A stretch of 58,800 nt of DNA from an uncultured virus (IMG/VR IMGVR_UViG_3300009104_000005) (lineage: Duplodnaviria; Heunggongvirae; Uroviricota; Caudoviricetes): IMG/VR virus record IMGVR_UViG_3300009104_000005; one strand, written 5' to 3'. The notes beneath the pieces were generated by a model. It made no database searches. It saw nothing but the letters and a program-made list of their open reading frames with translations, and was not told the DNA's origin. The translations under genes and the position numbers were made by a program. This document shows positions 16,101 through 51,262 of the stretch, piece after piece. How positions within the stretch are numbered: the first letter of the stretch is position 1; each line of letters opens with the position of its first letter.

Positions 16101-19100
16101 AGGAATGTAACCACTTTCGTCGAGTACATCATCTGGGAGTTTGTTAATCACAGCCTTACTGGGGTCGACCACTAATTCTGTAGGCCCTGAAGGGTCCATT
16201 GGATACTTGATGGTTTTACCTAGTAGTTCTCTACCTTGTTGGGAAAGCCAATTCAAGGCTGTCCATAACTTCTCTCGTACATGTTCGGGAATGGGAGTGC
16301 CGGTATTACCATCACATCCAGGGCAGACATGAGTGCCATTACAACCTGGGCATTGCATTGATACTCCTTCTCTCGTGAACCAAGTGGGGTCCTCTGGGTC
16401 AAAATTAGGATGGTCCTCCCACTCAGAATGAGTATGTGTACGAGCATGCTCTTTGAAGAACTGGATTACTCTAGGGTCACCATATTCAATCTCACCACTT
16501 CTCATGATAGGTCTACCTTCAGCATCTAATGCCAACCAAGAACGCTCTCCATCTGTGGTTCTGAATTGAATGAATGCTGGGGACTTTTTGATAAAATCTT
16601 CAGGGCTTATATGGCCCATGCCATCACAAGCAGTGCAAGAGGTAGCATAACCCCAGGGGTTCAACCCCGTTACTCGGTCCCTGTGAGGTAAGATGGCTTT
16701 GAGAGCCTTCGCGGACCCCTCAGGGTCTGAAGAGCGTCTCATAAGCATATCACGAACTCTGAACCAAGCATCCTCATCTGCTGCATTTACACCTGATGAC
16801 TTAGGTTCACCCTTCATAGGAGCAGGTCCACGATAGTCCAATTCCCCATACCCTTCTTTCAAATCTTCAAGTGTTAAAGGGAATTCATCAGTCCCAAGGG
16901 GCTCACCTCTAAGAGCACACCAAATATAGTCAGCGATAGGTTTCATCTCCTCCAATGTCCTACCTTTGGTAGCGAATAAACCATTACTTTTCTTATAAAA
17001 ATCATGGTCAGGGTCACTGAGCCCTTCATCATGAGCAATCCAGGCTTTACCTATCCAAGCAGGTATGTTTGGGTTGTTGAGAAAGAGTGTCATATCTGGG
17101 AAATGATTAGTAGTAGGCATGAAACCATGGTGGTCTTGAGAGACATAACCATATCTCAAAGCCTCTTCACAATCTCGATAGTGACCTCTTAGTTCGCCAA
17201 ACACTCTCTCTAAGGTCTGTGGTTTCAAGAAGGGGGCCTTAGAATCAGTGGTATTGAATATCGACTCTGGCCAACCCTTCTCGATTTGCTCTTCTCTAGG
17301 CGCTAAGTAATAATGGGACCACTCTTTCTCTGCTACCAACAAGGGGGAGAGAAGATGCAAGTTGTTTTTGAGTAATCTCTTGTGAGCATCATTTACTTTT
17401 TCACCCTTATCCATATCTAGAGTCTTTCGAGCCCAATCTTGCATACCCTTCTCATCTTCACCCCCCGTCAACCATAGTGGGTTACCATGAGCATGTACGA
17501 GATAGTCAGGCGTGAGAATATGTATAGCATAGAGTTCCTTGAGCAACTCATCATGTTCAGGGTCTAGAATCCCGTCATCGTGAATCCTATCCAGATGCCG
17601 TTCACCATACGAATAGTTCTCCCTATCAGTCTCAGTAGTACCATGGAGAGCCTGCCTGTCACTGTTTGTATTGTAGTACCTACTATGGAACTTATGAGTA
17701 AATTGCTCATCAGGAGTGGGTTTACCACCCCGTCTTCTCATAGCCGCAAACTTACCAAAGTCTAAATCTCCTCTATGTTGTTTGTAGAGGGGACTATGGG
17801 TAAACTCCTGTCTCTTATTTATCCTCAACTTCTCGTACTCTTCACCAATATCCTTCCCCTGCTCCCTCCACTCTTCCCTTTGCTCAGGAGTAACAAGACC
17901 TATTTCCTCGTGAGTGTCTTGCAACTCGTCTAGAAGTGGACCTCTAGCCCAACTCGCTTCTTGTAATGCATACATATCCTTATCCATAATCGCTCTATGT
18001 ATCATTGACTCGAATATCTTGGTACCGTCCTCCGATTGGGGGTCATTGGGACAACCTTCTCCTGATGACATCATATTGGGACCCTGGTGATAACCATCCT
18101 TATCACCGAGATTGGGTATGTCTAGAGAATTTGAACCTGGCATAGGAGGTCTCCCCATCATAGCCTCAACCTTACAGAAGGGGCATTCTGTGTTACTGGG
18201 TAGAGCATCCTCATCATCCTGCATCGCACTTGCAATGGTATCGAATTGCTCTATGGCTTTCTCACCACGCTTATACTTCTCCAAAGCCTGCTGATGGGTT
18301 TCCCCATCAAAAACCGACTGGAATTCTTCCCCTTCCCTCTCTATCAAGTCCTTCATAGCCATATCTAATTGCTGGATTTGCTGCTTCAACTCTGGTGAAG
18401 GGTCCTCAGTGTAAGCATCACTTTTCATTTTGATATCCTCATGCAACTCCTTGTACTTGTCCAGAACAGCCAATGTGAGTCTATTGATATCCATCGGATT
18501 ATGGTATATCCTGGACTTAGGGCCTACACCAGCAACTATCCTCCTATTGTGACCATCACCACAACAAGCACAGGATGGCTTCATATCTCTCATGAGAGAA
18601 TTATTCGTAACAGCAGAGATGACCTTATTGCCACCATACCTTTGGACACCAGTACTTTCATGACCATACACACCTCCACCCAGGTCTACTTTCTTCCGGC
18701 AGGCTGGACATGGGTGTCCCTCCAAATAATTACCAGTGCCTGATTCTCTAGCCTGTCGCGACCCATGACATACTCCACATGGTGCAATCGCAGGTCTAGA
18801 ATCAAATCTCCCAGGATGCCTAACCGTCTCCAAATGATTAGATATTCTCTGATTTATCGCCTCAGGATGATTTGGTAGGTGTGGGTCATAAGAGAGTATC
18901 TCACATAGTTTATTGAACCAAGAAGAATGGACAGCATCTCTCAAGAAGAAACCTGGCACACCAAGATTATTATCTATCAACTTGAAGTCCTCAACTAAGG
19001 ACTTAGCAATCTCATCACGAATGTGAGTAATAGGAGCCCCTTTATTCTCGAGCATAACTTTTCTTCTCAAATCCATAAGATTGCGATTGGTAAGAACTCC

Positions 19101-21833
19101 TCCTCTTGTGATACCATCTGAACCTAACTCTTCTGTATGCAACCCGTTATGATGCAGTAAGAAGTGGACACCATCAGGTAATATACCACGATTACTGAAA
19201 TTAGCAATCTCTCTATCCCTTTGTTCTTTCCTTTGAGCAAAGCGCAAGGTAGAATGAGCACCTTCCAACTCTTTGGCCATAGCCTCCAAAGCATCAGTTG
19301 CTGTGAACCCCTCGAAGTCTATCTTAGCCAAGATTTTGTGGAGAAATCCTGATGGGTTAACAAACTCTTTATTACCATCACAAATGAAACATTCCTCATT
19401 AAGATACGGGTCTATACCAGTAGGCTTCCCAGTCTCTTCGTCAATACACTCAGTGCAAGGTTCGTAGAAATCATTATCTCGGGCCAATTGTATGATATTT
19501 CTATCATGCACATTTTTGAGTACATCATACTCTTTCTTCAAGTCCTCTACAATCTTATGCTTCTGACTATCACTGAGTGTGGTCTCACTTATCCCAGGGA
19601 CTTCCCCTGAGGCATCACATCTATTACAAGGGATAGGTCTCTTAGCCCTACTATTCTTCGTATATTCCTTACTACCCTTGCATTTAGGGCATTCAACCAT
19701 TGAAACATCAACTGGTCTCTCTCCAGTGATTGGGTCCTTACCATAAGTCCTTTGAGTTCCTAGAAGCATATGCCGCGCCATAGTACCAGCATCACTACTC
19801 AGAATAACTGAGGGTGTATTCTCAATATCGTGTTTGTTGTACAAAGCCTTCTTCAGCATCAAAAATCTTGAGCCCTCTTTAGTTTTCAGAAAAGCCAACT
19901 CTCTAATCGCGAACTCCAGTAGAGTTGGTGATATCCCACTCTCGTGGGCTCTCTCGTCAAAACGATGATGGACTTTTTCTCTCTCCTTGGACAATTCACT
20001 CTCAGCATCTTTCAACATTCGCTGTTGAGCCTGTGGTGTAGCCCTAGTAGTGAGGTGTTCAACCATAGCGTGATTATCTAGGAGTATCTCCATATCCTTC
20101 TCAGTGAGATGTAGAGGATGGCTTTCATGTGCATACGGCCCATCCCCAATGGAATCATCAACTCGACCCTGTAACTCCTTCTCAAATTCTCGATAAGCCC
20201 TTTCCCAGTCCTCATCGTCATATCGCATGTCGTAAGTGTTGAATGGTATTCCGGAACTAACTCTATCCCTCTCCACCCCAGCCATCTCATTTGGGTCTAA
20301 TGGTGAGTCCCCTCCTGCCTCAAAGTAATCTTCATCTTCCAGTAGGTCACGGCCCCCTCTATCTTTGACATGCTGTGGTTTCTCAGGCTCTCCTTCATAG
20401 GTACCCTCACCTCCAGTAGATGCTTGAGCCCCTGCACCAGACCCTTCCAAAGAGTCGAACTCATCAGGAGCGTCTCCTCCCCCAGCAGCATGTTGAGGAC
20501 GAGGGTCGTGATTCAGATATTTGAACAAATCTCGGGAACCCCAATCACCTATGATTGAATTAGTCTCAATAGCATGCTTCTGACCACGAGCAGCCTCCTT
20601 GGCTTTATCTCCCTCAAAGTCGGATATTGCATGAAAAATATCATCCCTCTCTTCTGCTGGGAGCCTCCAAGTAGCAAATAGAACTTTGAGCAGAGTCTCT
20701 GGGCCAGAACCGAAATCAATACGACAACCTAGTATAATCCTCCTAACTTCCCAAGGCTGGTCTTCCCACCAATTAACTATTCGATGGTATCTACTATCCA
20801 GTTTCCCTTTCTTCATCTTAGGATTCTGGGGGGCATCTCTGAGAATCTTACCTAGACTCATTATGGCTAGATTAGTCCTTTCTTGGTCCACTAAGTTCCC
20901 ATAACTATTGATATCATGCCTAGAACCCATCTTCTCTTCACGGCTTTGCCTCAGAGAACCCTTAGACTGTAAGATGCTAGGACAGTCACAAGACGAGGCC
21001 CCTTTCCCTAGTTCGCAATCATCAATATGCTCCTGATGTCCTTGCATAGCCAATAACACATCAGCACAAGCATTATCTTTATAATACCCTTTCAGAACCT
21101 GAAGCCTGTTAGAGTTATGGATTGTATCTTCTACCTTCGCTCTCTCACTTTCGTCTTTGCCCCTCATCATTGCTCTTATAGCGTTCTTAGTCCTAGGGGT
21201 TTGGTTCATTCTCTCTATTCTTGAATCAAGAGTTTTGAGTATAGCGGACTTACTTTCATCATGCTCATCAGGGTGTTGCTTAGCCAATTCCAAACATCTC
21301 AGGTTCCAAAGAGCGTGAACCTTCTTATCCTTATGTGCCATGAGTGCCAACGCATTCTTACTAGTCTCATACCTATTTGGGAATACATAGTTCTTGTAGT
21401 GATTGTCACCCATCTTGCTGTGTTCATGTAAGATTGAGTTCCAAGCCTTGGGGCTAAAGACTGAGGAACCATCTTCCCCTACTGCACTCACGATGGGCTC
21501 ATCTTGGTTAATTCTCCCCCTACCAGACGAACTCCCACATTGTTCACAATGTCTCCCCTCTTCACCCTCTTTCTCACATGTGGGGCACTCAATACCTGTC
21601 TTGGAAGCCAGTTCCCACTTAGGAGTATACTTCTGGAGTATCTCATACAATCTAATGAATTTGTGGTCATCAGTCCTATACTTCGACAAGATATGTCTAG
21701 CATCCCTAGCATCACAATTACTGAGTCTTCTGATAAGGTCCTTCTCATCCTTGTCTGGTGGTTCACCACGAGCCGCTTTGAGAAGCAACTCTTTGAGAAT
21801 TTGCCAAGAAGACTCTACAGGGCTAACTAGCAC
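13167..21833 (-). CDS. Giant (~2,890 aa) protein with many CxxC / DnaJ-type CxxCxGxG Zn-finger repeats; likely internal virion protein
   Basis: Uninterrupted ORF with CPKCKG, CNRCDASG, CGVCHG, CTACDGMG, CPGCNG, CPGCDG and CGMCGGRG. WxxLK-type tags at both ends. GTG 21833 preferred from promoter spacing (track gives TTG 21845). Confidence 0.85.
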   Translation of the reverse strand: MLVSPVESSWQILKELLLKAARGEPPDKDEKDLIRRLSNCDARDARHILSKYRTDDHKFIRLYEILQKYTPKWELASKTGIECPTCEKEGEEGRHCEQCGSSSGRGRINQDEPIVSAVGEDGSSVFSPKAWNSILHEHSKMGDNHYKNYVFPNRYETSKNALALMAHKDKKVHALWNLRCLELAKQHPDEHDESKSAILKTLDSRIERMNQTPRTKNAIRAMMRGKDESERAKVEDTIHNSNRLQVLKGYYKDNACADVLLAMQGHQEHIDDCELGKGASSCDCPSILQSKGSLRQSREEKMGSRHDINSYGNLVDQERTNLAIMSLGKILRDAPQNPKMKKGKLDSRYHRIVNWWEDQPWEVRRIILGCRIDFGSGPETLLKVLFATWRLPAEERDDIFHAISDFEGDKAKEAARGQKHAIETNSIIGDWGSRDLFKYLNHDPRPQHAAGGGDAPDEFDSLEGSGAGAQASTGGEGTYEGEPEKPQHVKDRGGRDLLEDEDYFEAGGDSPLDPNEMAGVERDRVSSGIPFNTYDMRYDDEDWERAYREFEKELQGRVDDSIGDGPYAHESHPLHLTEKDMEILLDNHAMVEHLTTRATPQAQQRMLKDAESELSKEREKVHHRFDERAHESGISPTLLEFAIRELAFLKTKEGSRFLMLKKALYNKHDIENTPSVILSSDAGTMARHMLLGTQRTYGKDPITGERPVDVSMVECPKCKGSKEYTKNSRAKRPIPCNRCDASGEVPGISETTLSDSQKHKIVEDLKKEYDVLKNVHDRNIIQLARDNDFYEPCTECIDEETGKPTGIDPYLNEECFICDGNKEFVNPSGFLHKILAKIDFEGFTATDALEAMAKELEGAHSTLRFAQRKEQRDREIANFSNRGILPDGVHFLLHHNGLHTEELGSDGITRGGVLTNRNLMDLRRKVMLENKGAPITHIRDEIAKSLVEDFKLIDNNLGVPGFFLRDAVHSSWFNKLCEILSYDPHLPNHPEAINQRISNHLETVRHPGRFDSRPAIAPCGVCHGSRQARESGTGNYLEGHPCPACRKKVDLGGGVYGHESTGVQRYGGNKVISAVTNNSLMRDMKPSCACCGDGHNRRIVAGVGPKSRIYHNPMDINRLTLAVLDKYKELHEDIKMKSDAYTEDPSPELKQQIQQLDMAMKDLIEREGEEFQSVFDGETHQQALEKYKRGEKAIEQFDTIASAMQDDEDALPSNTECPFCKVEAMMGRPPMPGSNSLDIPNLGDKDGYHQGPNMMSSGEGCPNDPQSEDGTKIFESMIHRAIMDKDMYALQEASWARGPLLDELQDTHEEIGLVTPEQREEWREQGKDIGEEYEKLRINKRQEFTHSPLYKQHRGDLDFGKFAAMRRRGGKPTPDEQFTHKFHSRYYNTNSDRQALHGTTETDRENYSYGERHLDRIHDDGILDPEHDELLKELYAIHILTPDYLVHAHGNPLWLTGGEDEKGMQDWARKTLDMDKGEKVNDAHKRLLKNNLHLLSPLLVAEKEWSHYYLAPREEQIEKGWPESIFNTTDSKAPFLKPQTLERVFGELRGHYRDCEEALRYGYVSQDHHGFMPTTNHFPDMTLFLNNPNIPAWIGKAWIAHDEGLSDPDHDFYKKSNGLFATKGRTLEEMKPIADYIWCALRGEPLGTDEFPLTLEDLKEGYGELDYRGPAPMKGEPKSSGVNAADEDAWFRVRDMLMRRSSDPEGSAKALKAILPHRDRVTGLNPWGYATSCTACDGMGHISPEDFIKKSPAFIQFRTTDGERSWLALDAEGRPIMRSGEIEYGDPRVIQFFKEHARTHTHSEWEDHPNFDPEDPTWFTREGVSMQCPGCNGTHVCPGCDGNTGTPIPEHVREKLWTALNWLSQQGRELLGKTIKYPMDPSGPTELVVDPSKAVINKLPDDVLDESGYIPPRTHLPGATKQIPGVLWYEEKDDKGEPTGVIYTIRDPWYSHTGGMGTGTSFNRQLEKVPADEFWGAGNIGPPPQEGWGLPAGSEAQDRKLEDLKESMTFKPEPPLLGERKKPEPTEWVGGEKPKMGQCQYPGCEQIIPEAESYCGPTELYEHASTVGQGKKMLELRHSNNPAPDHKSLMASPRMQEAMNTEIPSKQYYGGHEAIRNMIELGFSMVSSKAYGTVLHLDPEKFKSDVADGFQMWMDHFRDSDLEDVGGSKWAQIKRLESEYKQGGITREEFDKKKEKVEDEHFEALQDATSEWLNGFEKLDMHIPYFTHPDLVDDDGNEIPHSPFDVFHSGSIPNDISTFNYIEHGFDHTNPQERNRVKFGDTTLFLSGVKPVSVCPRCFMKLSRDDVDNGECPHCHDSFSEPNQDYIYPGKGFGGHLNTDGINWIAPALDNRDSLKSRAQYMATLTPGAYEGGLRDPALVSCGMCGGRGWFRDKQNNKHSCQHCAEIPGMGHVALGEHISGGVTSNEWDKYAIVQYHRPNYQITSGFAGDEASFSPVKGDEMQQVIDALRLAAGGSQISDTLFMPDVNRRLTGKELRGVHDVVNDKAATKAEHELKALLDPNTVIPTLNSGFFSGNGWSHPKFNKAYFTGYRSAEKKVRRLSSLLAGSSSGVGTSDLFRITGATSFSDLGKPSAAENIGGLPGWTKSALLKRKIGQAKGHITKYEDKKKLSDYEQGKLNDARLLLGLTEQFTEQGHPIALLNKMQTGTKIYRLEIADHSKPGIVRDVPMTLLHGAFLSRGGKTSQQMASEMLENNFGTDHNIYHVNGGVMGTAGSIFTDRMDALDKRTEGHFRYGAKPRPPEEDGTVREGLETTDRVERDAVFTPAALIEERNRVHGLGRHDHAEAYHSRLESALEGTNIKVPPLPPPVERGTLSTEEAGRLTGDTLPEPPKYPTEGPEGPMQWTRSDDDEPMSLAWDKILKNIKIVQ

Positions 21834-21835
21834 AT

Positions 21836-21855
21836 ATGACCCCAAGAGGGGTCAT
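21836..21855. other. Perfect 8-bp hairpin just upstream of the giant gene
   Basis: atgacccc-aaga-ggggtcat. Confidence 0.6.
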
Positions 21856-28095: not shown

Positions 28096-28229
28096 GAACA
28101 GATACGGAGAAAGACGCTTACAAGATATGGTTTCACTACAACATGAGGTTGAACACCAGATGCACATGGTCAGTAGCAATTGACCTTGCCCTACGGGGCT
28201 TTACGATTCCAAAGGAGAATAAAACATGA
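28092..28229 (+). CDS. 45-aa peptide
   Basis: GGAGG RBS; ATGA overlaps at both ends. Confidence 0.5.
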   Translation: MRTDTEKDAYKIWFHYNMRLNTRCTWSVAIDLALRGFTIPKENKT

Positions 28230-28942
28230 ATGATACACCAGATAGACCAGAACCGCCAGAGGAGATACAACTGCCCGACAATATCGTAGAGTGCTACAAC
28301 TGTAGTGGCTACAAGGATGTTGATGACCCAGAGAACAGGGACATACCACACGAACTTGACCTTTGCACTTGCGATGATGCCCTAAAGCGAGATGCCGCAG
28401 CAGTAGCCTTCATTCACGAAGGAGGTGCGATGACGGACCATTACCCCGCCGTCTCTCCTGATATGTTGCTCGTCGTGCGCCGCTCCACCAATGAAACCTC
28501 TCATCACGGCCTATGGGAGTTGCCCGGTGGTAAAGTCGAGGATGGGAAGACCATCCTTCAAACGGCCTTCGATGAACTCCATGAGGAGACCGGAATCAAC
28601 CCCCACGACATCGAGTGTGATGAATGCAACCTCTACATCACTAACGGTAATCACGCATCGGTATATGTGGCTGACGAAATCTTCACACACGAAACAGAAG
28701 ATAAGCGGTATCATGTGGTTAAGATGTTGTTTGATAGTGCCCCACGCCCCGCCGTCATCCTATCGGATGAGCATGATGAATACGGGTGGTTCTCGGTTGC
28801 GGAGTTGCTAAGAATGAACCCCGATAAACTCAGCCATCACCTATACTCGCTGATAATGACCGAGTTCAGAACAGCAGAAACCGGAATAGGCCCAGCGACT
28901 CCCGTTAAGGTGACGCTTGCGAAGCACGATGAGGAGGAGTAG
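28226..28942 (+). CDS. Nudix hydrolase
   Basis: WELPGGKVEDGKTILQTAFDELHEETGI Nudix box and LSDEHDEYGWF. Confidence 0.9.
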   Translation: MNDTPDRPEPPEEIQLPDNIVECYNCSGYKDVDDPENRDIPHELDLCTCDDALKRDAAAVAFIHEGGAMTDHYPAVSPDMLLVVRRSTNETSHHGLWELPGGKVEDGKTILQTAFDELHEETGINPHDIECDECNLYITNGNHASVYVADEIFTHETEDKRYHVVKMLFDSAPRPAVILSDEHDEYGWFSVAELLRMNPDKLSHHLYSLIMTEFRTAETGIGPATPVKVTLAKHDEEE

Positions 28943-30538: not shown

Positions 30539-31732
30539 ATGTGTAGGTTAGAGGGATGTTCTGAGCCAGCCCCTATGGGGGAGCACGGTCGTAGGCTATT
30601 GTATTGCCCTGACTGTTATACTGCACATCGTCTTATGCCTCGGGCAAAGAGATTGGAAGAGCATCTTGCTGCAGTCAAGCGAAAGCGAGAATTAACCGAG
30701 AGATTTGAGGAGGAAATGGAGAACGGAACTCGTAAAGTCTGCAAGTTAATGGGTTGCCCCGAGATTGTCCCATTAGCGAATACTAAGCATATTGACGACA
30801 AAAAGAAGTATTGCTGTCGTAAGCACAAGAACAAGCACCGTGAACTTTTCAAACACTTGCACTCTACAATGAGCAATGTAGTAAGGGGAGAGAGAATAAC
30901 TTTCTCTATGACCGGAGAACTCAAGAGGTTCGGAATTACCCCCGAAGGTTTGAATCAACACCTATCCGAGAAGTATCTCTCCGACTACAAGAGAGGTCTC
31001 CGATACACATCAAGCCCCCCTGATGAGCGTGGATTGCCTACTGATATGGTTCACAAAGAGAGAATGAAGGGATACGCCATAGACCACATCATAAGCAAAG
31101 AACACCATGAAAGATTGTTTGGACCATTAGTCGATAAGAATGGCTTTACACCAATAGGTATAGTTTGCAACTGCTTGGAGAACCTACGATTGATAGTGGG
31201 CCGAGAGAACAGTGAGAAGGGTATGTTAAGCGGAGAGAATTGGAGGACTCACCCCATGACTGACGAAGAGATGCGAGCCATCATACTACAACGGCTAGAG
31301 GACTATGATTTGCAACTGCTTGAAAACCCAGAGAGATATGTACATCTCTGCGAGGCTTGTGAGGAAAAGCCTGTAGCACCTACGAGATTGAAGTTCTGTA
31401 GTCAGAAGTGCGCTACTGCGAAGAGAAATGAGAGAAAAACGATAGCGAGACATGGGGTGGCTGTTCGCATTTGCACTTATTGCAATGATAAGCCTGTAGG
31501 ATATAGAAGGCAGAAATACTGTGGAGATGAGTGTGCTCATCTTGCAATGCTACGCCAACATAGGGAAGCATGGCCCACTTGGAGTGTGGAGAACATGAAA
31601 AAGCATAACGCTTCAACATGGACAGAATGGATGGAGAATCGTCGTGGAGGGGACCATAGGAGAAAGCCCGTAATCACTATGAACCCCCCAAAACAATCAA
31701 CAAAGTCAGGAGAGATGAACAATGGTAGTTAA
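30539..31732 (+). CDS. HNH endonuclease with multiple Zn-finger repeats (homing-endonuclease-like)
   Basis: YAIDHII...CLENLRLI..RENSEKG; repeats YCPDC, YCCRKH, FCSQKC, YCGDEC. Confidence 0.75.
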   Translation: MCRLEGCSEPAPMGEHGRRLLYCPDCYTAHRLMPRAKRLEEHLAAVKRKRELTERFEEEMENGTRKVCKLMGCPEIVPLANTKHIDDKKKYCCRKHKNKHRELFKHLHSTMSNVVRGERITFSMTGELKRFGITPEGLNQHLSEKYLSDYKRGLRYTSSPPDERGLPTDMVHKERMKGYAIDHIISKEHHERLFGPLVDKNGFTPIGIVCNCLENLRLIVGRENSEKGMLSGENWRTHPMTDEEMRAIILQRLEDYDLQLLENPERYVHLCEACEEKPVAPTRLKFCSQKCATAKRNERKTIARHGVAVRICTYCNDKPVGYRRQKYCGDECAHLAMLRQHREAWPTWSVENMKKHNASTWTEWMENRRGGDHRRKPVITMNPPKQSTKSGEMNNGS

Positions 31733-34700
31733 GAGTGCAACCAAGAAGAAACTGATGGACCTTGGGATAGCGGAGAAGGATGCACACCTTCTTGCCGATG
31801 ACCGGAAGTGGGCTGATGTCAAGGAACTTACAGTCAAAGAAATCCATGCAATATTGTTCAACGAAGAAATACCCTTCAGTATTGGGGGAGAACATGCAGA
31901 GGAAGTCAAGGCAAAGATAGACTGGGCAAGTCAGCCTGAAATAAATCAGGGTATAGATGAATACATCACGAGTATTTTCCAGAGTGCGCTTGACTCTATC
32001 GTGAATCCTGATGATGGAGATAATCTACCCCATCTTGGACCAGAGTATGGCAGTTTGTTCTCTCCATCTCCAGAAGATGAGGAGTTGGTCATTACACTCA
32101 CATTCAGTCAGGTATCCTTCCTCAGGACATATGATAGTGAAGGCCCTGACGATGAACCCTTCCTTGACCCAAATTGGGACCATTGTAGTGACAGTAGTTG
32201 CGGTCACTGTCCTATCCATACTTTGCATCACGGCATACAGCATGCTGCACACAATCCAGATGGTAAGCAGATGAACATTTGGAAGCAATGCTTTGAGCAG
32301 TTTGGAGATGTGGATTCCAACGGCACACACATTAATGTTGCGATACTCTATGCTTACTCAAGCAAGCAAGAATACACATACGAAGGGAAGAAAGTCAGAT
32401 TCAAACCGCTTAACAGTGTGCAGCAACCATCACAATCAACAAAACCAAAGAAGGGCGTTTTTGCCAAAAGAAAGGAGAAGAAAACCATGAATACTATAGT
32501 AGGAAGTAAGAAAAGAGCAGAGATAATATTGAAAGTAGTCGAGAGATTCGATGTTAGTTGGAGTGAGAGAGGAGAAGAAGGGTTCTACAATACCCTACGA
32601 GTGTCACCCATATACTTGGAGCAATTCATAGAGACACTGTTGGAGAACCTCTTGAAGCAAGAAGCGATGGATGTGTTCAGGAGAGGGATGATAACCTTGG
32701 GCATACCATGGTCAGCGAATGAGCATATGATAGTGGAGTACTACGCTATTCCATCTTATGCAAGAAATAGGATTCCGAGTGATGAGAAGAAGGAGATAAC
32801 CCACAAACTCACACAAACATTCGCTCAAGCGATTCATGATAAGATAGACGAGTCATTGGAGAGTGGCACAGACATGGGTCATGTTCACAGATTCGCAGCC
32901 ACTATGGGTAAGGCTCGCAAGGGTGAGAACCCAAGAGTGGTGTTAGATTACTATCTCGCTAGTAGGTATCATACTAGCCTCATTGATGTCCCCTTCGTGA
33001 AGGCATACCTCACTTACGACAACAATGAGGGCACTACACTACCAATCTCACAGAAGGCGAGAGGTATTCACTCAATTGGGAGAAACACCACCGGACTGAG
33101 GATGTTCAACAAACTACCCTCACTACACATCTCCCTGAATGTTGCACTCGGTTCCACTAACAGAGAACTGATTATGAGTATAGCAAGAACTTGGCAGGGC
33201 AGGAGGGTGGAGAATACATTGGCCAATGGTCTCTACATCAGAACCTGCCCTGCAACACCTCGCCCCGGAGCACTACCAAATGTGTTGGCTAAGACACCAA
33301 AACAATTCTTGGATGGAGTAAGAATGCTTGGAGATTGCATGACTAACCCAGACCATGTGGATTACGACCCAGATGGTTGTTTGGTAGTTCAGCAATACAT
33401 CAAGCCTGTCTGTTCAGCAGTAGTAGTCAAGGGTTCTGATACATTCACCATTGGCCCCAACAACGATGGAGTCACAGCAGGTGGAGGTAGCAATATCGTA
33501 TTCACACTCAATAAATCAGGTCAGAGAAACCTAAGCCAAGATATCAAGAGACTTGAACTCAATGATGGGATGGAACACCACGAGATTGAGTTAGTATACG
33601 ACTCCTCAGGTATTCTACAGAAACCGTTGGCTTGGTTCAGGGCGCTTGCAGACCAAAGGCACAGAGGTAAGGAAGGGAGAATCAAGCCTACCATCACACA
33701 GATGAGAGGACTACATACAGCGAAGGCTGACCTTGTCCCACCACCAATGGTAAATGGAGAGGCACTCTACATCAGGGGTAATGTCCCAATGGGAGTAGTC
33801 GAGCAATTGGCTGTAATGGATGTGGGTAAAGGCTCACTTGATGAGTGTCTCGAATTGGAACAGATGGCCAAGAATGGAGAACTGCCTGAAGGACTCGTAG
33901 TCTATGCACCATCAGGAACCAATGCAGCCCATGTGGCAGGAGTAGGTCTGGACTTCCACTTCCCCGTCATCTACGGTATCAAACCAGCAAGGAATGGGAC
34001 TATCTGGACAGAGATAGAAGGTTGGGTCACAGACCAACCGGGGGCAGAGCCTCAACCATACGACCCAACACCATTCATGGACTTCTACAAGATAGGATTG
34101 AGAGATGGAGACAGGTTCTGGACATACAATCTCGCTCCACTATCACAGTTCTTCCACAATTACATCTCAGGGCCTGTCAATGACCCTCGATTGGAGGCTT
34201 ATCTTGCTGGTGTATTCACCACATGGATAATCAAGGCTGCAATCGGTGTATCAATGGCTGAGTTCAGGCATGGTATAGGCAGTAGCAGGGCAGAGATTAG
34301 TCCCCATAGAGCATTCAGTCACATACTGATACAGCAGTGCATCGCTGGAGAATCTGGGGTAGACAACCTATTCCAAAGAGGAGAATACTACCAGAGATTG
34401 AACTACAATGAACTGGGATACGATTTGATACACTCACTATCCGAATTCTACTCAGATGCTTACGATGGTAGCGTAGTAGAGTGGGGTGATGGTTCATTCG
34501 GTGGGCAGAAATATTACAATTCAACATATCCAACCAGAGATGCGAGTAGTTTGATACTCAAACTCCTTCAGGGAGGAGATGTAGATTTGAAAAGTATTCT
34601 CGCCTCAGTCAATAAATTGGAGAACGCTGTGCATAACACAGGCTTCTTCTTCAACAAGTTCCTCGGAGATAAGAGCGCATTTGATATAGGCACAACGGGT

Positions 34701-35684
34701 CACTCAGACTTCACAACAGCCTCTGAGCATTGGTTGGTCACAGCACCATTCTATGCTCTATTCTACACTAACTATGTGGATGAACCACACAGGGTGGCTA
34801 AGGGCCACGACAAACTCGTAGTCCATATCATGAAGATGGCTAGAGAGAGATGCAATACTTCCATGGTTGATGAGATGCCGAAGTTTCTATCTTTGGCTGA
34901 CGGACACGGGACACTCAAGGATGATATCCATTCGGCTTGCCTGAAGCACCACGAGCACTTCTTCGTTGAACAATTGGAAGCAGACTTCAGAATGCACAAG
35001 TCAGGACTGTGTGGATTTGACGAGTGCAAATCACTAGAATGTAGGAGAATGGCATCATTGGTGAAGATGGGTATTGACTTGGACACACTCAATAAACTGC
35101 TGGAGCAACTGAACGGATTCATGTCCGCCTCATCCTTCTCATTCCCTCATGACCCTGACTCATTGGAGTTCGTCACCAATGAACTAACTGCACAGGGTAG
35201 TAGAGCAGTGAGTCAGACAGCATTCACAAAGACCACGAGAAAGGTGGAGACACCTGATGTATCAGTCACCAAGATTTTCGATAGAGTCTTTCTGATACAG
35301 CCCAACAACAGCGAGATTGCCCATGTCTACATGGACTGGAAAATGAGTGAGTGGTGGACTGAAGTAGAAGAGACTGTATGTGAGATAGAAGATTGTAGTC
35401 CAGAGGAGCAATACTACGCTTGGAAAGACCCAACACCTTGGATTGGAGAAGACATCATGGGTGAGGTGAAAGAACTTGAAGAGATACTCAACGGTATCGA
35501 CAAGCCTTGGAGAGCATATTCACGATACTGGAATACCAGTCATGATGGGTTCTCTACCCCTACTAAAATCATACAGGCTATGATGACCTGCCACGAAGGC
35601 AGATACCACTACGATACACATTCCTTGCTTCAGAGATTACACGAAGCAGGCAAAATTAATGAAACAAAAGGAGAGATAAAATGA
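31722..35684 (+). CDS. Large PEP-utiliser/dikinase-like phosphotransferase (ATP-grasp plus phospho-His swivel domain, with unknown N- and C-terminal domains)
   Basis: YIRTCP..RPG, LVVQQYI, GPNNDGVTAG and ITQMRG resemble the PPDK N-terminal domain; VYAPSGTNAAHVAGVGLDFHFPVIYG resembles the GGxTSHAAI..GIP swivel motif. Confidence 0.65.
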   Translation: MVVKSATKKKLMDLGIAEKDAHLLADDRKWADVKELTVKEIHAILFNEEIPFSIGGEHAEEVKAKIDWASQPEINQGIDEYITSIFQSALDSIVNPDDGDNLPHLGPEYGSLFSPSPEDEELVITLTFSQVSFLRTYDSEGPDDEPFLDPNWDHCSDSSCGHCPIHTLHHGIQHAAHNPDGKQMNIWKQCFEQFGDVDSNGTHINVAILYAYSSKQEYTYEGKKVRFKPLNSVQQPSQSTKPKKGVFAKRKEKKTMNTIVGSKKRAEIILKVVERFDVSWSERGEEGFYNTLRVSPIYLEQFIETLLENLLKQEAMDVFRRGMITLGIPWSANEHMIVEYYAIPSYARNRIPSDEKKEITHKLTQTFAQAIHDKIDESLESGTDMGHVHRFAATMGKARKGENPRVVLDYYLASRYHTSLIDVPFVKAYLTYDNNEGTTLPISQKARGIHSIGRNTTGLRMFNKLPSLHISLNVALGSTNRELIMSIARTWQGRRVENTLANGLYIRTCPATPRPGALPNVLAKTPKQFLDGVRMLGDCMTNPDHVDYDPDGCLVVQQYIKPVCSAVVVKGSDTFTIGPNNDGVTAGGGSNIVFTLNKSGQRNLSQDIKRLELNDGMEHHEIELVYDSSGILQKPLAWFRALADQRHRGKEGRIKPTITQMRGLHTAKADLVPPPMVNGEALYIRGNVPMGVVEQLAVMDVGKGSLDECLELEQMAKNGELPEGLVVYAPSGTNAAHVAGVGLDFHFPVIYGIKPARNGTIWTEIEGWVTDQPGAEPQPYDPTPFMDFYKIGLRDGDRFWTYNLAPLSQFFHNYISGPVNDPRLEAYLAGVFTTWIIKAAIGVSMAEFRHGIGSSRAEISPHRAFSHILIQQCIAGESGVDNLFQRGEYYQRLNYNELGYDLIHSLSEFYSDAYDGSVVEWGDGSFGGQKYYNSTYPTRDASSLILKLLQGGDVDLKSILASVNKLENAVHNTGFFFNKFLGDKSAFDIGTTGHSDFTTASEHWLVTAPFYALFYTNYVDEPHRVAKGHDKLVVHIMKMARERCNTSMVDEMPKFLSLADGHGTLKDDIHSACLKHHEHFFVEQLEADFRMHKSGLCGFDECKSLECRRMASLVKMGIDLDTLNKLLEQLNGFMSASSFSFPHDPDSLEFVTNELTAQGSRAVSQTAFTKTTRKVETPDVSVTKIFDRVFLIQPNNSEIAHVYMDWKMSEWWTEVEETVCEIEDCSPEEQYYAWKDPTPWIGEDIMGEVKELEEILNGIDKPWRAYSRYWNTSHDGFSTPTKIIQAMMTCHEGRYHYDTHSLLQRLHEAGKINETKGEIK

Positions 35685-37174
35685 CAGTATACAAAAGACA
35701 TGGAACAACAACAACGACAGGGACAGGAACGACCTGGAAAGAATGCCATAAAGGTGTTAATCTTGTGTTCACCACCCATGACGGCATAGAGGTATATGCC
35801 GGAGGCAGCAGCCGTACTGGTGGCTGGTGGCTAATGGAGAACCCACCCGATTTGGCGATGGGGCCGGACAGCGAGGTCTTGAAGGGCATGCCTAAAGGTA
35901 ATGCCAGCCGAGGCTTAGAAACAGCCTCTTGGCCATGCATGGACAAGATAGAGATAGTGGAGCCGCCAAAGAACATCTTGGCGATGGACTTCCCGGATTT
36001 CAATGTCCCTGCAGACTTGGGTAAGGAGTTCTGGGAACAATTGGTGATAGACATCAGAAAGAATGGAATTAAGACCATCCACTGCATGTGTATGGGAGGA
36101 CACGGAAGAACTGGTGTGCAACTGGCTATTCTGAGATACCTATTGGCTACAGAAAAGGAGAGAGAGGATTGGGAGAACTCCTATGATGTAGTGAAGGCCA
36201 TCAGAGGACCTTATTGCGACAAGGCAGTAGAAGCCACAAAGCAACAAGAGTATGTTGCTGATATGTGTGGAATACCTATTGGCCCGGCACTAAGTTTTCA
36301 CAAGGCTCAGTATGGTGGTACGACTACTAGTTATGGTAAGTCCTCTGTGAAGAAGACTAATTTCAACACGAAACTGGTAGAGTGTACAATCTGTGACTTC
36401 TCTACTTGGGAAGATAGTGAAAACGAACTTGAGAAGGGTGACTGGTGCTACGACTTTGCATGCAATGGTAAACTGACTGATGTTCACGAGTTCTGCATTG
36501 AGAGAAACAAGGCCAGTATAGAGAAGGACGCTTGTATGTGTCTGAACTGCCTACAACCAATCAGCGATATACAGGTAATGAGTTTGAACCACCTTAACGG
36601 CAACCTAATGGAAGTGCTACACGGTGAAGATTGGTCTACACTATTGGCCAGCCAGATGAAACTGAATCCTGCTGGAAACTTGAAGGGAAAATTACTGAGA
36701 AATCTTAGCCAACTCCTCCTCGACCTCAAAGAGGGAGATGATGTAGTAGTAGTTGACTCTTGCATCTTATGCAACTTCAACATGAAGGATAACTCAGATG
36801 CTCCTGACTACGAGAAGGGGGATAAGGGATATGTATGTCATGTGAAGTGTGATTACTGCTACAAGAAAGTGAGTCCTCACATATTGACTATGGCTTTAGA
36901 TGTGAAAAGCAATACAAATTGCAAGGCTTGTCCTGAATGCATTGCTGATAGTAAGAGTCAATTCTATTTCCAAGATAACATGACTGAGGAAGATGGTATG
37001 AGGATTGACGGTATTAGCCCACAGAGATGGCTCAGATTGACCCACATAGATGTGTTCAATGTATTGAAGGATAAAGCAGCAGGAGTGACCAAGGGTGATA
37101 AAACATCTGATGAAACACCTGAGGCACAACCAACTAACAGCAAAGGAGTGAATGAAGATGACTACGAACTCTGA
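35681..37174 (+). CDS. Cys-based protein tyrosine/dual-specificity phosphatase with Cys-rich C-terminus
   Basis: CX5R loop CMGGHGRTG, FPD acid loop, VEATKQ; several downstream CxxC pairs. Confidence 0.85.
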   Translation: MTVYKRHGTTTTTGTGTTWKECHKGVNLVFTTHDGIEVYAGGSSRTGGWWLMENPPDLAMGPDSEVLKGMPKGNASRGLETASWPCMDKIEIVEPPKNILAMDFPDFNVPADLGKEFWEQLVIDIRKNGIKTIHCMCMGGHGRTGVQLAILRYLLATEKEREDWENSYDVVKAIRGPYCDKAVEATKQQEYVADMCGIPIGPALSFHKAQYGGTTTSYGKSSVKKTNFNTKLVECTICDFSTWEDSENELEKGDWCYDFACNGKLTDVHEFCIERNKASIEKDACMCLNCLQPISDIQVMSLNHLNGNLMEVLHGEDWSTLLASQMKLNPAGNLKGKLLRNLSQLLLDLKEGDDVVVVDSCILCNFNMKDNSDAPDYEKGDKGYVCHVKCDYCYKKVSPHILTMALDVKSNTNCKACPECIADSKSQFYFQDNMTEEDGMRIDGISPQRWLRLTHIDVFNVLKDKAAGVTKGDKTSDETPEAQPTNSKGVNEDDYEL

Positions 37175-37412
37175 AACAACAGATTTTGACTCCGCGGTCA
37201 TTATGTATAACGAGAGTTATTGGGTGAGGGAAACCGCATACATAGTGAATGAAATGCTATACGCTATTGAGCAGAGTAAGAATCCTGAACTAACTGATGA
37301 GCAGAGAAAAGGCTACGCTAAGAGAGGTAGAGACCTGCGTGATAAAACGATAATGTGCATCAACAATGCATACAACGACTCCACCAAACAGGAGAATGAA
37401 GAAAATGAGTGA
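37152..37412 (+). CDS. Hypothetical protein
   Basis: Short coupled ORF. Confidence 0.6.
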   Translation: MKMTTNSETTDFDSAVIMYNESYWVRETAYIVNEMLYAIEQSKNPELTDEQRKGYAKRGRDLRDKTIMCINNAYNDSTKQENEENE

Positions 37413-38022
37413 AATAGAGAAGAACATGAAGAATATAACCAAGATTGAAGCAGATAATCCGAACCCGGATATATTCAGCGAGAACATAGAGGGAGAGAAG
37501 GGAGCACCTACGGAATTAGAGAACCCTGAGTTCAGGGTAAAAGCCGCTACCTTGAAGGGTAATGGGAGTCTACACATACAGTTAGGCCACCCTCAACCTT
37601 CCAAGGTCTGGAAGTTTATGGAGCAGAAATTTGGAACTCCATTTTCTCAGACTAACTCGGACAGAGTGCTAAGAAAGTATGGAGCAGCCTTCAACATCCC
37701 GACAGCCAATGGTTCGATAGACCAGCACGAGATGCAGGAACTCGGACACAGGTTGATAGAAGCAGGAGCCTTGGTAACTAGTTTTGCTAGTGCAGCCAAT
37801 GACTATGTGACGATGAAGTTCGTTGGAGTGGTTGATGGTAAGGATAACCGTGAGAAGGATGTGAAGATGATGGAGTTCGTGGTTGGAGATGATGAGCAAC
37901 TGTTCGTAGCCTTCAGTCACCTCGATGTGTTGAGCAAGACAGACAACGAAAACTATCCTTGTGTAAGACAAGAGTGCCTACTAGCCCTATTGGTAGATGA
38001 GTTCACCGGAGTTGATGCTTGA
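37405..38022 (+). CDS. Hypothetical protein
   Basis: ORF with GGAG RBS; start MSEIEK. Confidence 0.7.
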   Translation: MSEIEKNMKNITKIEADNPNPDIFSENIEGEKGAPTELENPEFRVKAATLKGNGSLHIQLGHPQPSKVWKFMEQKFGTPFSQTNSDRVLRKYGAAFNIPTANGSIDQHEMQELGHRLIEAGALVTSFASAANDYVTMKFVGVVDGKDNREKDVKMMEFVVGDDEQLFVAFSHLDVLSKTDNENYPCVRQECLLALLVDEFTGVDA

Positions 38023-41229: not shown

Positions 41230-42819
41230 ATGACAAAACAGCAAGTAATAATGATAGCAGACAAGGTCAAGAAGAATGACTCTGGGACAGTAGTATCGCT
41301 ACACTACTCGGCTATAGGGGGAGACGATACAGTCACCCTAGTCCCATTCAATTCTTTGACCACCTTCAAGATTAAGGAGGGGGAATGGCTCTGTAAGGTG
41401 TCCGAGTTTGAGACACCCGGAGGAGTATTCAGACCCGAAATGGTCTTCAAGGGAGAGAGAGAACCAGTGCAACCAAGTAGCGAATTGCACATAGACCTGA
41501 TAGACATGGTAGAACAAGGTGCAGCAGAGCAGAATCTCAAAAAGCGCATCAAAGCGGACGAGACCATAACTACTGGAGATAACAATGTAGGAATAGGTCA
41601 TGAAGCCGGAGATGATGTATGGGATGGAGCACTACTGAAGGGAGGGAGAGCCAAGAAAACGGCTCCTTGGAACTTCACACCAGAGTTCCTACCTAACTTC
41701 GTGTTTGATGGTCAGACAGAGGAGTTCGTAAGGGTGAACAAAGCCAATGGTAACGCAGCCACTTGGAGTATATTCAATCCTGCCATGAAGACAGAGAAAA
41801 GGCCTGCTGGGGCCCTATTGGGTTCAGTTAGCGACAGATACCATGTGCTTCCACACCCTCAATGGGTTGAGCCGATGCTGAGATACGCAGAGATGTCCAG
41901 CATCAACTCGTCAGTCACGGCTTGGAATGATGGTGCTCGTTGTAGAGTGGACTTGGATGTGACCCAAGCGGCACAGACAAGGAAAGCAGCAGCAGCGCAG
42001 TTAAGGGAGAAGGGACACAGTTTCCTAAACACAGATGCATTTAGTGAGGCTGCCCAGAACCTGGATGGGCTCTACAAGTTTGGATTTACGATTAACAACA
42101 GCCTAGATGGGAGAGGTTCATTCAGCGTTCATGGAGGAGCCCTGAGAACCTACTGCAGCAACCTTGCAGTCGCTGGAGGTATCAAGACAGCCCTGAGCCT
42201 TAGACATACTAAGGGAGTCATGGCTGATATTGATTGGGATGTACTGGGTCTAGACCTAGTGAACGCTACAGCACAACTCAATGAGTGGTTGGTCAATACC
42301 GAACTACTCTCTTGGGTCCCAATGGATATCCAACTGATGGACAAGATGATGTATGTAATGTCAGAGAACAACATAGGCCTGTCTCCACCTAGAATCGTTA
42401 AGGATAAGGAGACACAAGAGGTCAAGAATGTCAACAGGGGCCACATGGATTTGGCTCTGGCACAGGGTTGGAAAGACCCTAACCTATACTATGTGAAGGC
42501 GGCTGATGAGAAGAATACAGCGTATCATGCGCTACAATGCTTCACAGGAGCCATAACTCACAAGCCTACTGTGTTTGATGATAAGAGGAAACTCGATGGA
42601 ACAGCATTGGGTATGGACACCCTAGATGGGAGACTCAAGAGAGTCAATGATGAGTTCATGAAGATGTTCGATTATGTCACTCAAGAGTATGAGGGGGCTG
42701 ACATGTCGATTGAAGATAAAGAGAGTTTCAGAGACCTCGTTAGGAAAGAGAACCTAGTAGAGGCATACCTGGATGGTATTCCAGGATATACGGAGGTGCA
42801 CGGTATTAGTGCACTATGA
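41230..42819 (+). CDS. DUF932-family protein with N-terminal extension
   Basis: LLGSVSDRYHVL, INNSLDGRGSF, LRTYCSN and LRHT motifs. Confidence 0.8.
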   Translation: MTKQQVIMIADKVKKNDSGTVVSLHYSAIGGDDTVTLVPFNSLTTFKIKEGEWLCKVSEFETPGGVFRPEMVFKGEREPVQPSSELHIDLIDMVEQGAAEQNLKKRIKADETITTGDNNVGIGHEAGDDVWDGALLKGGRAKKTAPWNFTPEFLPNFVFDGQTEEFVRVNKANGNAATWSIFNPAMKTEKRPAGALLGSVSDRYHVLPHPQWVEPMLRYAEMSSINSSVTAWNDGARCRVDLDVTQAAQTRKAAAAQLREKGHSFLNTDAFSEAAQNLDGLYKFGFTINNSLDGRGSFSVHGGALRTYCSNLAVAGGIKTALSLRHTKGVMADIDWDVLGLDLVNATAQLNEWLVNTELLSWVPMDIQLMDKMMYVMSENNIGLSPPRIVKDKETQEVKNVNRGHMDLALAQGWKDPNLYYVKAADEKNTAYHALQCFTGAITHKPTVFDDKRKLDGTALGMDTLDGRLKRVNDEFMKMFDYVTQEYEGADMSIEDKESFRDLVRKENLVEAYLDGIPGYTEVHGISAL

Positions 42820-50346: not shown

Positions 50347-51017
50347 GCGAGAAACATTGGGAGCCTACCGAGGAAGATTTAGAATGGACTAGAGGGGTAG
50401 TCGAAAGTCTAGAGATGGGGCAAGACTGGATGGAGGGGGAGATGGCGTTTCGCAAGACGGGGGACGCCACTCTCACCCTCCTCACTAGGACTGAGAGAGC
50501 CGAGAGCGCTATGCGCAGAGTAGAAGTTGTGTTGCAAATGATAGGTTGGCATCTAGAAATGGGGCAAGCCAAAATAATCCCCGATGACCCCCAACTAGCC
50601 GCCGAGATGATGCAGAAAGAAGCACAATCTTGGTTATGCCCCCATTGTAATGAAATACCAGTAGTCAATATGGACTTAGAGAATGCTGGGTGGGATATAG
50701 TAGGTAACAACCAATTCGTAGATGAGAGTGGACACGAGACGGTCACCGATAGATGGGTGATAGGGGTCACTTGCGATTGTGAGGAAGTGATATATCTCAG
50801 CCCCGATGACTACTATCTGATTGCTGGAGATGAACTCTTTTACATTTGGGAGGGCTGGTTTCCCATCCAACCTGAGCAAATCGTGGAAGCAGTAGATAAA
50901 GGATATTGGGAAGACCTATATGCTCAGCCTCTTGGTAGCGAGTGGGACGGCAAACCCGTCCCCCTGCACATGAGAGGACTCATGTGTGTAAGAAGAAAAG
51001 GAGAGGAAGAAGAATGA
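50343..51017 (+). CDS. Acidic hypothetical protein with Zn ribbon
   Basis: CPHC..CDC; ends GEEEE. Confidence 0.75.
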   Translation: MSEKHWEPTEEDLEWTRGVVESLEMGQDWMEGEMAFRKTGDATLTLLTRTERAESAMRRVEVVLQMIGWHLEMGQAKIIPDDPQLAAEMMQKEAQSWLCPHCNEIPVVNMDLENAGWDIVGNNQFVDESGHETVTDRWVIGVTCDCEEVIYLSPDDYYLIAGDELFYIWEGWFPIQPEQIVEAVDKGYWEDLYAQPLGSEWDGKPVPLHMRGLMCVRRKGEEEE

Positions 51018-51262
51018 GAACTACACGCCTAAGACAGAACATTAAGAAATACCTAGCAACAAACGGTGAGTGCAATACCACACAAATACTGGAGCACATC
51101 AATAACACTATGAGGCACGGCACAACTCCCCAGCAATTGGGGAATGTGCTGTCCAAAGATAAGGACATTGTGAAAGTCAGTAGCACTCGTCGCGCAGGTG
51201 CGCTCAGCGGACGCTATGAGATATGCGTGTGGGCGCTCGCGTCCGCGCCCGCGCTTGAGTGA
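51014..51262 (+). CDS. Small winged-helix protein resembling a conserved Thermoplasmata family (DUF3860-like)
   Basis: MRTTRLRQNIKKYL..NTTQILEHIN..RHGTTPQQLGNVLSKDKDI..SGRYEICVW. Confidence 0.7.
   Translation: MRTTRLRQNIKKYLATNGECNTTQILEHINNTMRHGTTPQQLGNVLSKDKDIVKVSSTRRAGALSGRYEICVWALASAPALE

Follow-up and report, generated by a model that had tools for sequence, protein, structure and literature searches.

What is the substrate of a dikinase-like enzyme that a tailed virus encodes directly ahead of a cysteine phosphatase, and do the two make up a phosphorylation switch? This question is raised by a 58,800-nucleotide stretch of DNA (hereafter the window) from the uncultured virus IMGVR_UViG_3300009104_000005, in which a kinase open reading frame (ORF) of 1,320 amino acids (aa) and a CX5R phosphatase ORF overlap by ATGA at 35681-35684 (Table 1). 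An earlier reading of the letters alone (the original prediction) had noted this coupling and proposed a writer/eraser pair. We found strong support, from fold, conserved residues, gene linkage and a natural double-loss control, for dikinase-type phosphotransfer through His737 to a helical domain, with the phosphatase coupled to it. Our preferred reading goes further: the predicted dikinase, the phosphatase and a third component (T3) would form a conserved viral module, that is a self-contained on/off phosphorylation switch with a serine of T3 as acceptor. We put the probability of this whole chain at about 40%. The original prediction overlooked T3 (37366-38022) as well as a host-derived tag at the N-terminus of the kinase.

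No family was assigned to the large ORF by Pfam, PHROGs, NCBIfam, PADLOC or a PDB sequence search, and tblastn with the kinase core against GenBank phages gave no match. Since no profile library recognises this ORF, its motifs could be checked by fold only. We therefore modelled residues 430-1120 with AlphaFold from a 19-sequence alignment (predicted template modelling score, pTM, 0.88; mean predicted local distance difference test, pLDDT, 80.5). The best Foldseek matches of the model were rifampin phosphotransferase (RPH, E 6e-6) and then pyruvate phosphate dikinase (PPDK, 1ggo, E 5e-5). With VIA-align, RPH 5hv1 fell onto residues 430-667 (Z 8.2, root-mean-square deviation (rmsd) 3.2, 196 residues aligned) and the N-terminal part of Enzyme I-Ntr, 5t12, onto residues 681-776 (Z 5.5, rmsd 3.9, 88 aligned). 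A Z of 8 is by itself middling according to the aligner's own note; we call a dikinase fold because two aligners agree, because the ESM Atlas neighbours of the kinase bear PF01326 and PF00391 (scores 0.89-0.90) and because the relevant residues are conserved. The ATP-grasp and swivel folds expected from the motifs are thus present, and dikinase-type chemistry, with predicted phosphotransfer via His737, is well supported by sequence and model.

Beyond the swivel domain, residues ~781-1017 are almost all helix in the model and form no TIM barrel, and a Pfam scan of the window kinase and its homologues returned no PEP-utilizers_C match, in line with the earlier claim that a pyruvate-binding barrel is missing. 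The same reading had let the protein end in the region FGGQKYY..HNTGFFFNKF, which is wrong: ~340 residues follow. For the helical acceptor domain, searched as part of the whole model and not folded on its own, we obtained generic helical-bundle rows only (Z<=5.5), so that it appears to have no clear structural match, a result that does not establish the absence of any known fold.

A profile search among 1.84 billion entries retrieved 1,034 cluster representatives at E<=0.001, 893 of them at 1e-10. When 66 distant homologues were scanned against Pfam, we obtained one weak PF00391 match (P0090, E 6e-4) and one weak unrelated match. By aligning 133 proteins (the query and 132 others of at least 480 aa), we found that the ATP-grasp residues K445, R507, T585, E623, Q660 and R662 are kept in 125-128 of them, the remainder being almost all gaps. 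The stretch from R507 to R662 spans codons 33240-33705, where PPDK-like ATP-grasp motifs had originally been read. His737, the swivel histidine likewise foreseen, is kept in 129/133 (4 gaps) and G732 in 119. In the acceptor domain, E847, R849, R886, W921, G927, G928, N964, H971, N972 and K979 are kept in 127-132 proteins, with H971 in 132/133. A His/Cys cluster downstream is invariant in two narrower alignments, yet occurs in only 51-55/133 here. The regulatory threonine that PPDK carries two residues before its histidine is not conserved (position 735 is L44/A34/N13/S11 of the 133); such a site is therefore an unlikely target of the phosphatase.

How tightly are the two genes tied together? 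Our linkage set comprised 92 loci, from the window, IMG/VR contigs and one GenBank record (a podovirus), with a median kinase identity of 28%. The phosphatase adjoins the kinase in 71/75 clusters at 90% identity and in 57/59 at 50%, so that the pair indeed co-occurs in other viruses. Three of the four exceptions at 90% run off the contig edge; of the two at 50%, one is truncated and the other lacks both the acceptor motifs and the phosphatase. In these last loci (L077-L079), no phosphatase lies nearby and the E-x-R, YGG and HN motifs are gone while the ATP-grasp and swivel motifs are retained (L079 7860-9401). As a natural double-loss control at the sequence level, they support a tie between acceptor domain and phosphatase. 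An exact motif scan located four loci in named bacterial genomes, and 4/4 have the pair; their neighbours include an integrase, a PRTRC gene and helicase/methylase genes, with a mobile-element context in three of the four. A single-protein scan of cellular genomes returned nothing. Kinase and phosphatase identities correlate (rho 0.54, 0/1,000 permutations), as shared genome ancestry alone could produce.

Around the pair, no metabolic neighbour was conserved among the 117 flanking proteins scanned. RapZ-C genes lie nearby in 7/59 clusters (L029, L037, L055, L057, L060, L069, L072), RNA ligases in 3/59 and also at L178, and a HAD_SAK_2 gene once. Using profiles seeded from two ligases, we detected no RNA ligase in the fetched flanks of the other 56/59 clusters, nor at any of the 84 split-type loci described below. 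DUF7296 genes occur near the pair in three clusters other than those with RapZ-C.

The phosphatase has three features of protein tyrosine phosphatases (PTP) and dual-specificity phosphatases (DSP), namely the CX5R(S/T) loop, the general-acid Asp loop and the Q-loop. Its CMGGHGRTG loop is intact (C137, R143), as originally read. D106 in the [WF]PD loop, C137, R143, E184 and Q188 are present in 57/57 aligned phosphatases, C22, H23, H141 and C179 in 54-55/57, and P-loop position 141 is His or Lys in 57/57. All phosphatases linked to the kinase make one clade with the signature CxGGHGRT; the Cys-rich tail is a feature of the marine clade. Homologues score above the Pfam cut-off for PTP-SAK, while the window phosphatase itself has no Pfam match and only a weak match to SsoPTP (E 0.44). 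Substrates of the PTP/DSP superfamily include lipids, glycans and RNA as well. Together these data support well, through fold and linkage, the part of the writer/eraser proposal that couples a phosphotransferase to a phosphatase; both enzymes may in addition handle the same phosphate. At four loci (L003 12248-12718, L014 14433-14906, L019 20074-20610, L067 13356-13901), another CX5R phosphatase of a different kind is encoded within a few kb of the pair.

By clustering neighbouring genes and iterating profiles, we identified T3, a domain of ~100-140 aa. Its profile reached i-E<0.02 in 28/59 clusters and gave 0 matches in a reversed database. Adding the window, L001 and L006, which earlier profiles had found and which form the window's insert-bearing subgroup, brings the count to 31/59, and ~7 further clusters are recognisable by eye. 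T3 is fused to the kinase C-terminus in 19/100 representative kinases with a tail and in 10 locus clusters, and stands alone in the marine clade, L031, L074 and L060, the last of which holds both a stand-alone and a fused copy. With kinase (K) and phosphatase (P), the gene orders K-P-T3, K-T3-P and T3-K-P are all seen. Ser139 is the sole invariant column among 40 T3 sequences (mean column identity 16%). The T3 model (pTM 0.76) had no Foldseek match at E<=0.001 and a best VIA Z of 3.2, and T3 gave no match in the Atlas, Pfam or the PDB. At L042 (5650-7095), a T3-like domain with a borderline score ends a 481-aa protein that has another N-terminal part and lies upstream of phosphatase and kinase.

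A related arrangement turned up in cultured phages, eight of which were matched by a phosphatase search. Carriers of this split cassette include the Vibrio phages J26, VH2_2019, SIO-2 and VHS1, the Stenotrophomonas phages DLP3 and DLP5, the Rhizobium phage RHph_Y1_11 and the Rhodobacter phage RcZahn. In the four phages that we inspected, the genes follow the order PPDK-like, CsrA-like, phosphatase 1, hypothetical, phosphatase 2 and a conserved last gene (PHROG families of the cassette: phrog_18609, 20946, 17568 and 25950). The PPDK-like proteins match the Pfam families PPDK_N and PEP-utilizers and no pyruvate-barrel family. The hypothetical gene, labelled hypothetical or membrane protein in phage records, corresponds to the acceptor domain alone (hidden Markov model (HMM) E 5e-13 to 3e-9; hhalign 88%, E 3e-6) and is present in 40 GenBank phage records. 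We collected 84 split loci, i.e. 69 clusters at 70%, and excluded 18 clusters with short flanks from the cassette count. In 51/51 full-flank clusters, donor, CsrA-like gene, two phosphatases and last gene were all found, and the last gene has a conserved G-T-S-x-x-S-x-Y-like loop in all of them. A small gene with a GNRRF-like motif accompanies 41/51 split cassettes (L092-L175, L180), and DLP3_141 (phrog_17568), labelled 'thymidylate synthase' in GenBank, is a CX5R phosphatase. We also considered T3 as a circular permutation of the cassette's last gene, which hhalign did not support (0.2% and under 0.1%).

In the accessible part of PMC12038007, the J26 genes are read as auxiliary PPDK, PTP and pyruvate decarboxylase, and ORF98 is named PPDK and has phosphoenolpyruvate (PEP) docked into it, although its overlap with PPDK is limited to residues 1-527 of 691. 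We found that the J26 gene annotated as 'pyruvate decarboxylase' corresponds to the conserved last gene of the cassette (E 5e-22), and the glycolytic auxiliary-gene reading of the split cassette is probably wrong. Since Pfam clearly places the split donor with PPDK and gives no match for the fused donor, it looks, from sequence comparison, as if acceptor domain and phosphatase were the core unit and the phosphohistidine donor had been recruited twice.

The first 45 residues of the window kinase have another origin, being 55-80% identical to proteins named RpoA'' of Ca. Poseidoniaceae. Only 3/37 other long kinases carry this tag (P0003, P0004, P0011), and the close relatives P0005 and P0006 (83-85% core identity) lack it. 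Further contigs match the stretch 31714-31775 and lose similarity to its left and right. In IMG/VR contigs, the tag was not confirmed by protein or DNA pattern; no contig among the matches listed bridges the tag-to-kinase junction, and four DNA runs cover the region in pieces. We nevertheless judge an assembly chimera unlikely because diverged in-frame versions head P0003, P0004 and P0011 (11 members, 5-30 kb contigs) and because a 925-base contig of independent origin (P0222) also codes for the same 70 residues. The tag is a recent, mobile, host-derived addition. It hints that the enzyme might in this lineage be anchored to the transcription machinery or to one of its partners, unless just a gene start was borrowed. 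Being sporadic in kinases, lacking in close relatives and also present on unrelated proteins, it cannot define the substrate of the family. Those unrelated proteins, of 160-380 aa, are P0223, P0225, P0227, P0278 and P0287.

How could such a module work? Domains, conserved residues and linkage of the genes are observed, and it is very probable that an RPH/PPDK-like phosphotransfer builds on them. By analogy with RPH and PPDK, the ATP-grasp domain would bind ATP, with K445, R507, T585 and E623 playing the parts of RPH Lys22, Arg117, Thr136 and Glu297, an assignment made by order within the aligned range and not by residue-level superposition. The beta-phosphate of ATP would pass to His737, AMP being released together with Pi (or PPi), before the swivel domain would ferry it to the helical domain. 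There, E847/R849/R886/H971/N972/K979 could position phospho-His and acceptor as RPH Glu667/Arg666/Lys670 do. The RPH residue roles are those given in the accessible part of PMC4844700. In the last and weakest step, the acceptor would be T3 Ser139 (or Tyr147) and the phosphatase would take the phosphate off again. T3 would then act like a receiver module, as a separate protein, as a cis fusion or, within one genome, in both forms; we favour its serine because T3 is distributed like such a module and because no pathway gene is conserved nearby. The dikinase reaction being close to reversible, an infection decision would read the host ATP/AMP balance from the phospho-state.

Several points weigh against this assignment. 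T3 goes undetected by profile in ~28/59 clusters (including those seen by eye), minimal loci with kinase and phosphatase exist (L030, L048), and the invariance of the T3 serine owes in part to profile alignment. We also found no T3 in 10 whole records, 5 of them at least 90% complete; this absence is uncertain because the control search, which recovered 3/5 copies, all of them alignment members, missed one known non-member. Profile comparison gave no support for homology between T3 and the last gene of the split cassette, and phage J26 lacks the CxGGHGRT-type phosphatase and keeps a single one of the other type. The Pfam models nearest to the phosphatase are PTP-SAK and Tc-R-P and not protein-specific DSPs. 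Moreover, a small ligand would agree equally well with the large number of polar and aromatic residues that are invariant in the acceptor domain, and small molecules are the substrates of those characterised ATP-grasp/swivel enzymes whose third domain has been exchanged (RPH, HpeHI, CreHI, PpsAB), according to the accessible part of PMC12167813.

These last points lead to a possible, though less probable, alternative, in which the substrate is a universal hydroxyl on a nucleotide, a sugar or an RNA end (a signalling nucleotide, an NAD/ADP-ribose derivative, a broken RNA end) and T3 serves as a reader that binds the ligand. The kinase would add one phosphate, and the phosphatase would take off either that phosphate or another one (end healing, or activation then release). 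This alternative follows closely behind the T3 serine because characterised relatives of the kinase act on small molecules, because the phosphatase is similar to PTP-SAK and because genes for RapZ-C and RNA ligases occur repeatedly, at low rates, near the pair. PTEN has a basic P-loop residue, and the His or Lys at position 141 is PTEN-like. The acceptor site keeps its invariant R/R/K/H/N/N plus W/Y across archaeal and bacterial hosts, the single HAD_SAK_2 gene and the CsrA-like gene of the split cassettes point the same way, and kinase and phosphatase are co-located as sequential steps in the Hpe/Acv pathway, as far as the accessible parts of PMC12167813 and PMC12624787 go. On the other hand, most loci have no detectable RNA ligase (two seed ligases only), no conserved third enzyme completes a pathway, and a stand-alone T3 with a single invariant Ser is harder to read as a binding module. 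Rather unlikely is reversible phosphorylation of a host protein, possibly the transcription machinery via the RpoA''-derived tag, with T3 as adaptor. The identity of the tag to host RpoA'', the classical [WF]PD general-acid loop and Q-loop, the kinase precedent of phage T7 for host-protein phosphorylation (accessible part of PMC13645617) and the position of the gene, among small genes between a strand switch and the replication genes, are in favour of it; the description of the gene as early, made originally, follows from this position only. Against a host protein, the tag is sporadic and promiscuous, as described above, and the acceptor site is shared by viruses of archaea and Proteobacteria and by elements of Acidobacteria and Chloroflexi. 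Because its residues do not change between viruses that infect archaea and those that infect unrelated bacteria, we consider a virus-encoded or universal substrate more likely than one on the host side, as originally suggested.

We regard as improbable that the phosphate stays on histidine, in a relay from His737 to His971 or His850 that ends in the helical domain, or that the enzyme is a carbonyl-activating ligase of the PigC/HapC type. Such a relay would account for the near-invariant H971, for the acceptor domain being a separate protein in the split cassette and for the match of the swivel domain to Enzyme I-Ntr, since Enzyme I passes phosphate to HPr; HapC turns up in the accessible RPH literature. 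No conserved downstream carrier or biosynthetic genes were found, however, and neither His relays nor such ligases are known to be paired with a CX5R phosphatase as a rule. By far the least probable is an auxiliary metabolic PPDK or PEP synthase interconverting pyruvate and PEP, with the phosphatase as regulator or bystander. It has on its side the GenBank labels and the naming and docking of J26 ORF98; for the window it is largely refuted by a third domain that is helical and not a barrel and by the missing regulatory Thr. The cultured-phage proteins lack a pyruvate-barrel family as well, their partial overlap with PPDK has been mentioned, and their supposed membrane protein and pyruvate decarboxylase neighbours are the acceptor domain and the last cassette gene.

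Among the swivel-histidine dikinases, the kinase is a new variant, and the gene system around it did not turn up in the literature searched. With RPH-Lm (5fbs, 5hv1-3) and the two-component dikinases HpeHI/CreHI/PpsAB the kinase shares the ATP-grasp fold, the swivel His domain, a pyruvate barrel replaced by another substrate domain, the lack of the regulatory Thr and the existence of split forms, according to the accessible parts of PMC4844700 and PMC12167813. It differs in sequence (10-13% identity), in its obligate cysteine-phosphatase neighbour and in its occurrence in viruses and mobile elements. RPH has the order ATP-grasp/RIF-binding/swivel (C-terminal swivel), whereas the window kinase has ATP-grasp/swivel/acceptor, the PPDK order with a central swivel. 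The window acceptor, ~210 aa long, bears the motifs E-x-R, YGG and HN; as the alignment covered RPH residues 4-316 only, no match to the RIF-binding domain was obtained; RPH has an Arg-Glu pair in that domain and the window acceptor an invariant E-x-R pair, in a domain not folded and searched alone. Like PPDK and PEP synthase, the kinase has the ATP-grasp and swivel order and the invariant His, but no TIM barrel, no Pfam match, no conserved regulatory Thr and a shortened ATP-grasp. The cultured-phage 'PPDK' cassette has a homologous acceptor domain and the same CxGGHGRT phosphatase clade; in contrast, its acceptor is separate, its donor is a host-like PPDK_N/swivel protein without barrel, and it usually has two phosphatases, a CsrA-like gene and another last gene. 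In eukaryotes, glucan-water dikinase, whose domain order is the reverse, is opposed by the CX5R phosphatases SEX4, LSF2 and laforin. This parallels our pair, although we found no glycan gene here and no carbohydrate-binding module (CBM) match in window kinase, phosphatase or T3. From PTP-SAK, Tc-R-P and SsoPTP the phosphatase clade is set apart by its own CxGGHGRT signature, the conserved C22/H23/C179 and, in the marine clade, the Cys-rich tail; from Pnkp-type RNA end healing the system differs in having no conserved RNA ligase partner within the fetched flanks and with two seed ligases (3/59 clusters).

In the literature searched, the module is undescribed and only PMC12038007 touches on it; Burroughs & Aravind 2023, on this phosphatase superfamily, may cover the phosphatase clade. 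The main text of the magrovirus papers PMC11706807 and PMC10160649 contains neither 'kinase' nor 'dikinase', and PMC9503650 has no 'dikinase'. About a thousand 50%-identity clusters that no Pfam model covers, with a linkage to a phosphatase closer than that of most gene pairs in operons, point to a widespread candidate phospho-circuit of viruses. Either outcome would be new, a dikinase acting on protein or a universal small-molecule/RNA target modified by viruses of two domains. More tentatively still, the whole may represent a protein phosphorylation switch of a new class, restricted to archaeal and bacterial viruses and mobile elements, with a dikinase that uses the beta-phosphate of ATP, a swinging His, a receiver-like Ser, a dedicated phosphatase, energy-charge sensing, a donor recruited twice and an RNA polymerase docking tag in one lineage. 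Since the split form is present in GenBank phages, several of which infect harmless laboratory bacteria such as Rhodobacter capsulatus and Vibrio natriegens, it is open to experiment now.

Table 1. Features of the kinase-phosphatase-T3 locus, in positions of the window.
Feature	Positions	Strand	Basis or remark
Predicted dikinase-type phosphotransferase, 1,320 aa	31722..35684	+	predicted fold, structure matches, profile family
N-terminal tag, kinase aa 1-45	31722..31856	+	homologous to N-terminus of Poseidoniales RNA polymerase subunit A''
ATP-grasp domain, aa ~430-667	33009..33722	+	structure alignment and conserved residues
Swivel phosphohistidine domain, aa ~681-776, His737 at codon 33930	33762..34049	+	structure alignment and conservation
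Helical acceptor domain, aa ~781-991	34062..34694	+	model and invariant residues; homologous to stand-alone phage proteins (phrog_20946)
His/Cys cluster H1092, C1097, C1102, C1107	34995..35042	+	possible Zn site, part of family only
CX5R phosphatase, 497 aa (domain aa ~20-195), Cys-rich tail with 5 CxxC	35681..37174	+	motifs, alignment of 57
86-aa ORF between phosphatase and third gene	37152..37412	+	no family in Pfam, PHROGs, NCBIfam
T3, 218 aa	37366..38022	+	Ser139 invariant (codon 37780), Gln72 and Tyr147 near-invariant; stand-alone here

The window is a piece of a tailed-virus genome, with genes for a terminase large subunit, an SNF2 helicase, a clamp loader and NUDIX proteins (Pfam/PHROGs scans). 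Its genes lie on the minus strand up to ~25.4 kb and on the plus strand beyond, and a tRNA search of the window returned none. Its DNA is present in marine metagenome runs, with no RNA run among the matches listed. Because kinase aa 1-45 match the N-terminus of RpoA'' of Ca. Poseidoniaceae, the host is probably a member of Poseidoniales. The virus may be a magrovirus (virus of Poseidoniales), judging from archaeal-type genes, the RpoA'' tag and the marine origin.

Other ORFs of the window deserve mention. A Cys-rich 397-aa ORF at 30539-31732 (+) overlaps the kinase start and has repeated CxxC/FCSxxC-like motifs and an HNH-like stretch, with a weak PADLOC match only. Beside the terminase, the 502-aa ORF at 808-2316 (-) has a weak LAGLIDADG/HNH-type endonuclease match at aa 335-438 and could be an intein or a homing endonuclease. 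The minus-strand (virion) region holds a 2,892-aa ORF at 13167-21845 (-) without Pfam, NCBIfam or convincing PHROG match. On the plus strand, we also noted a NUDIX gene at 28226-28942 (+), a DUF932 gene at 41230-42819 (+) and a DUF3860 gene at 50942-51262 (+; E 2e-34).

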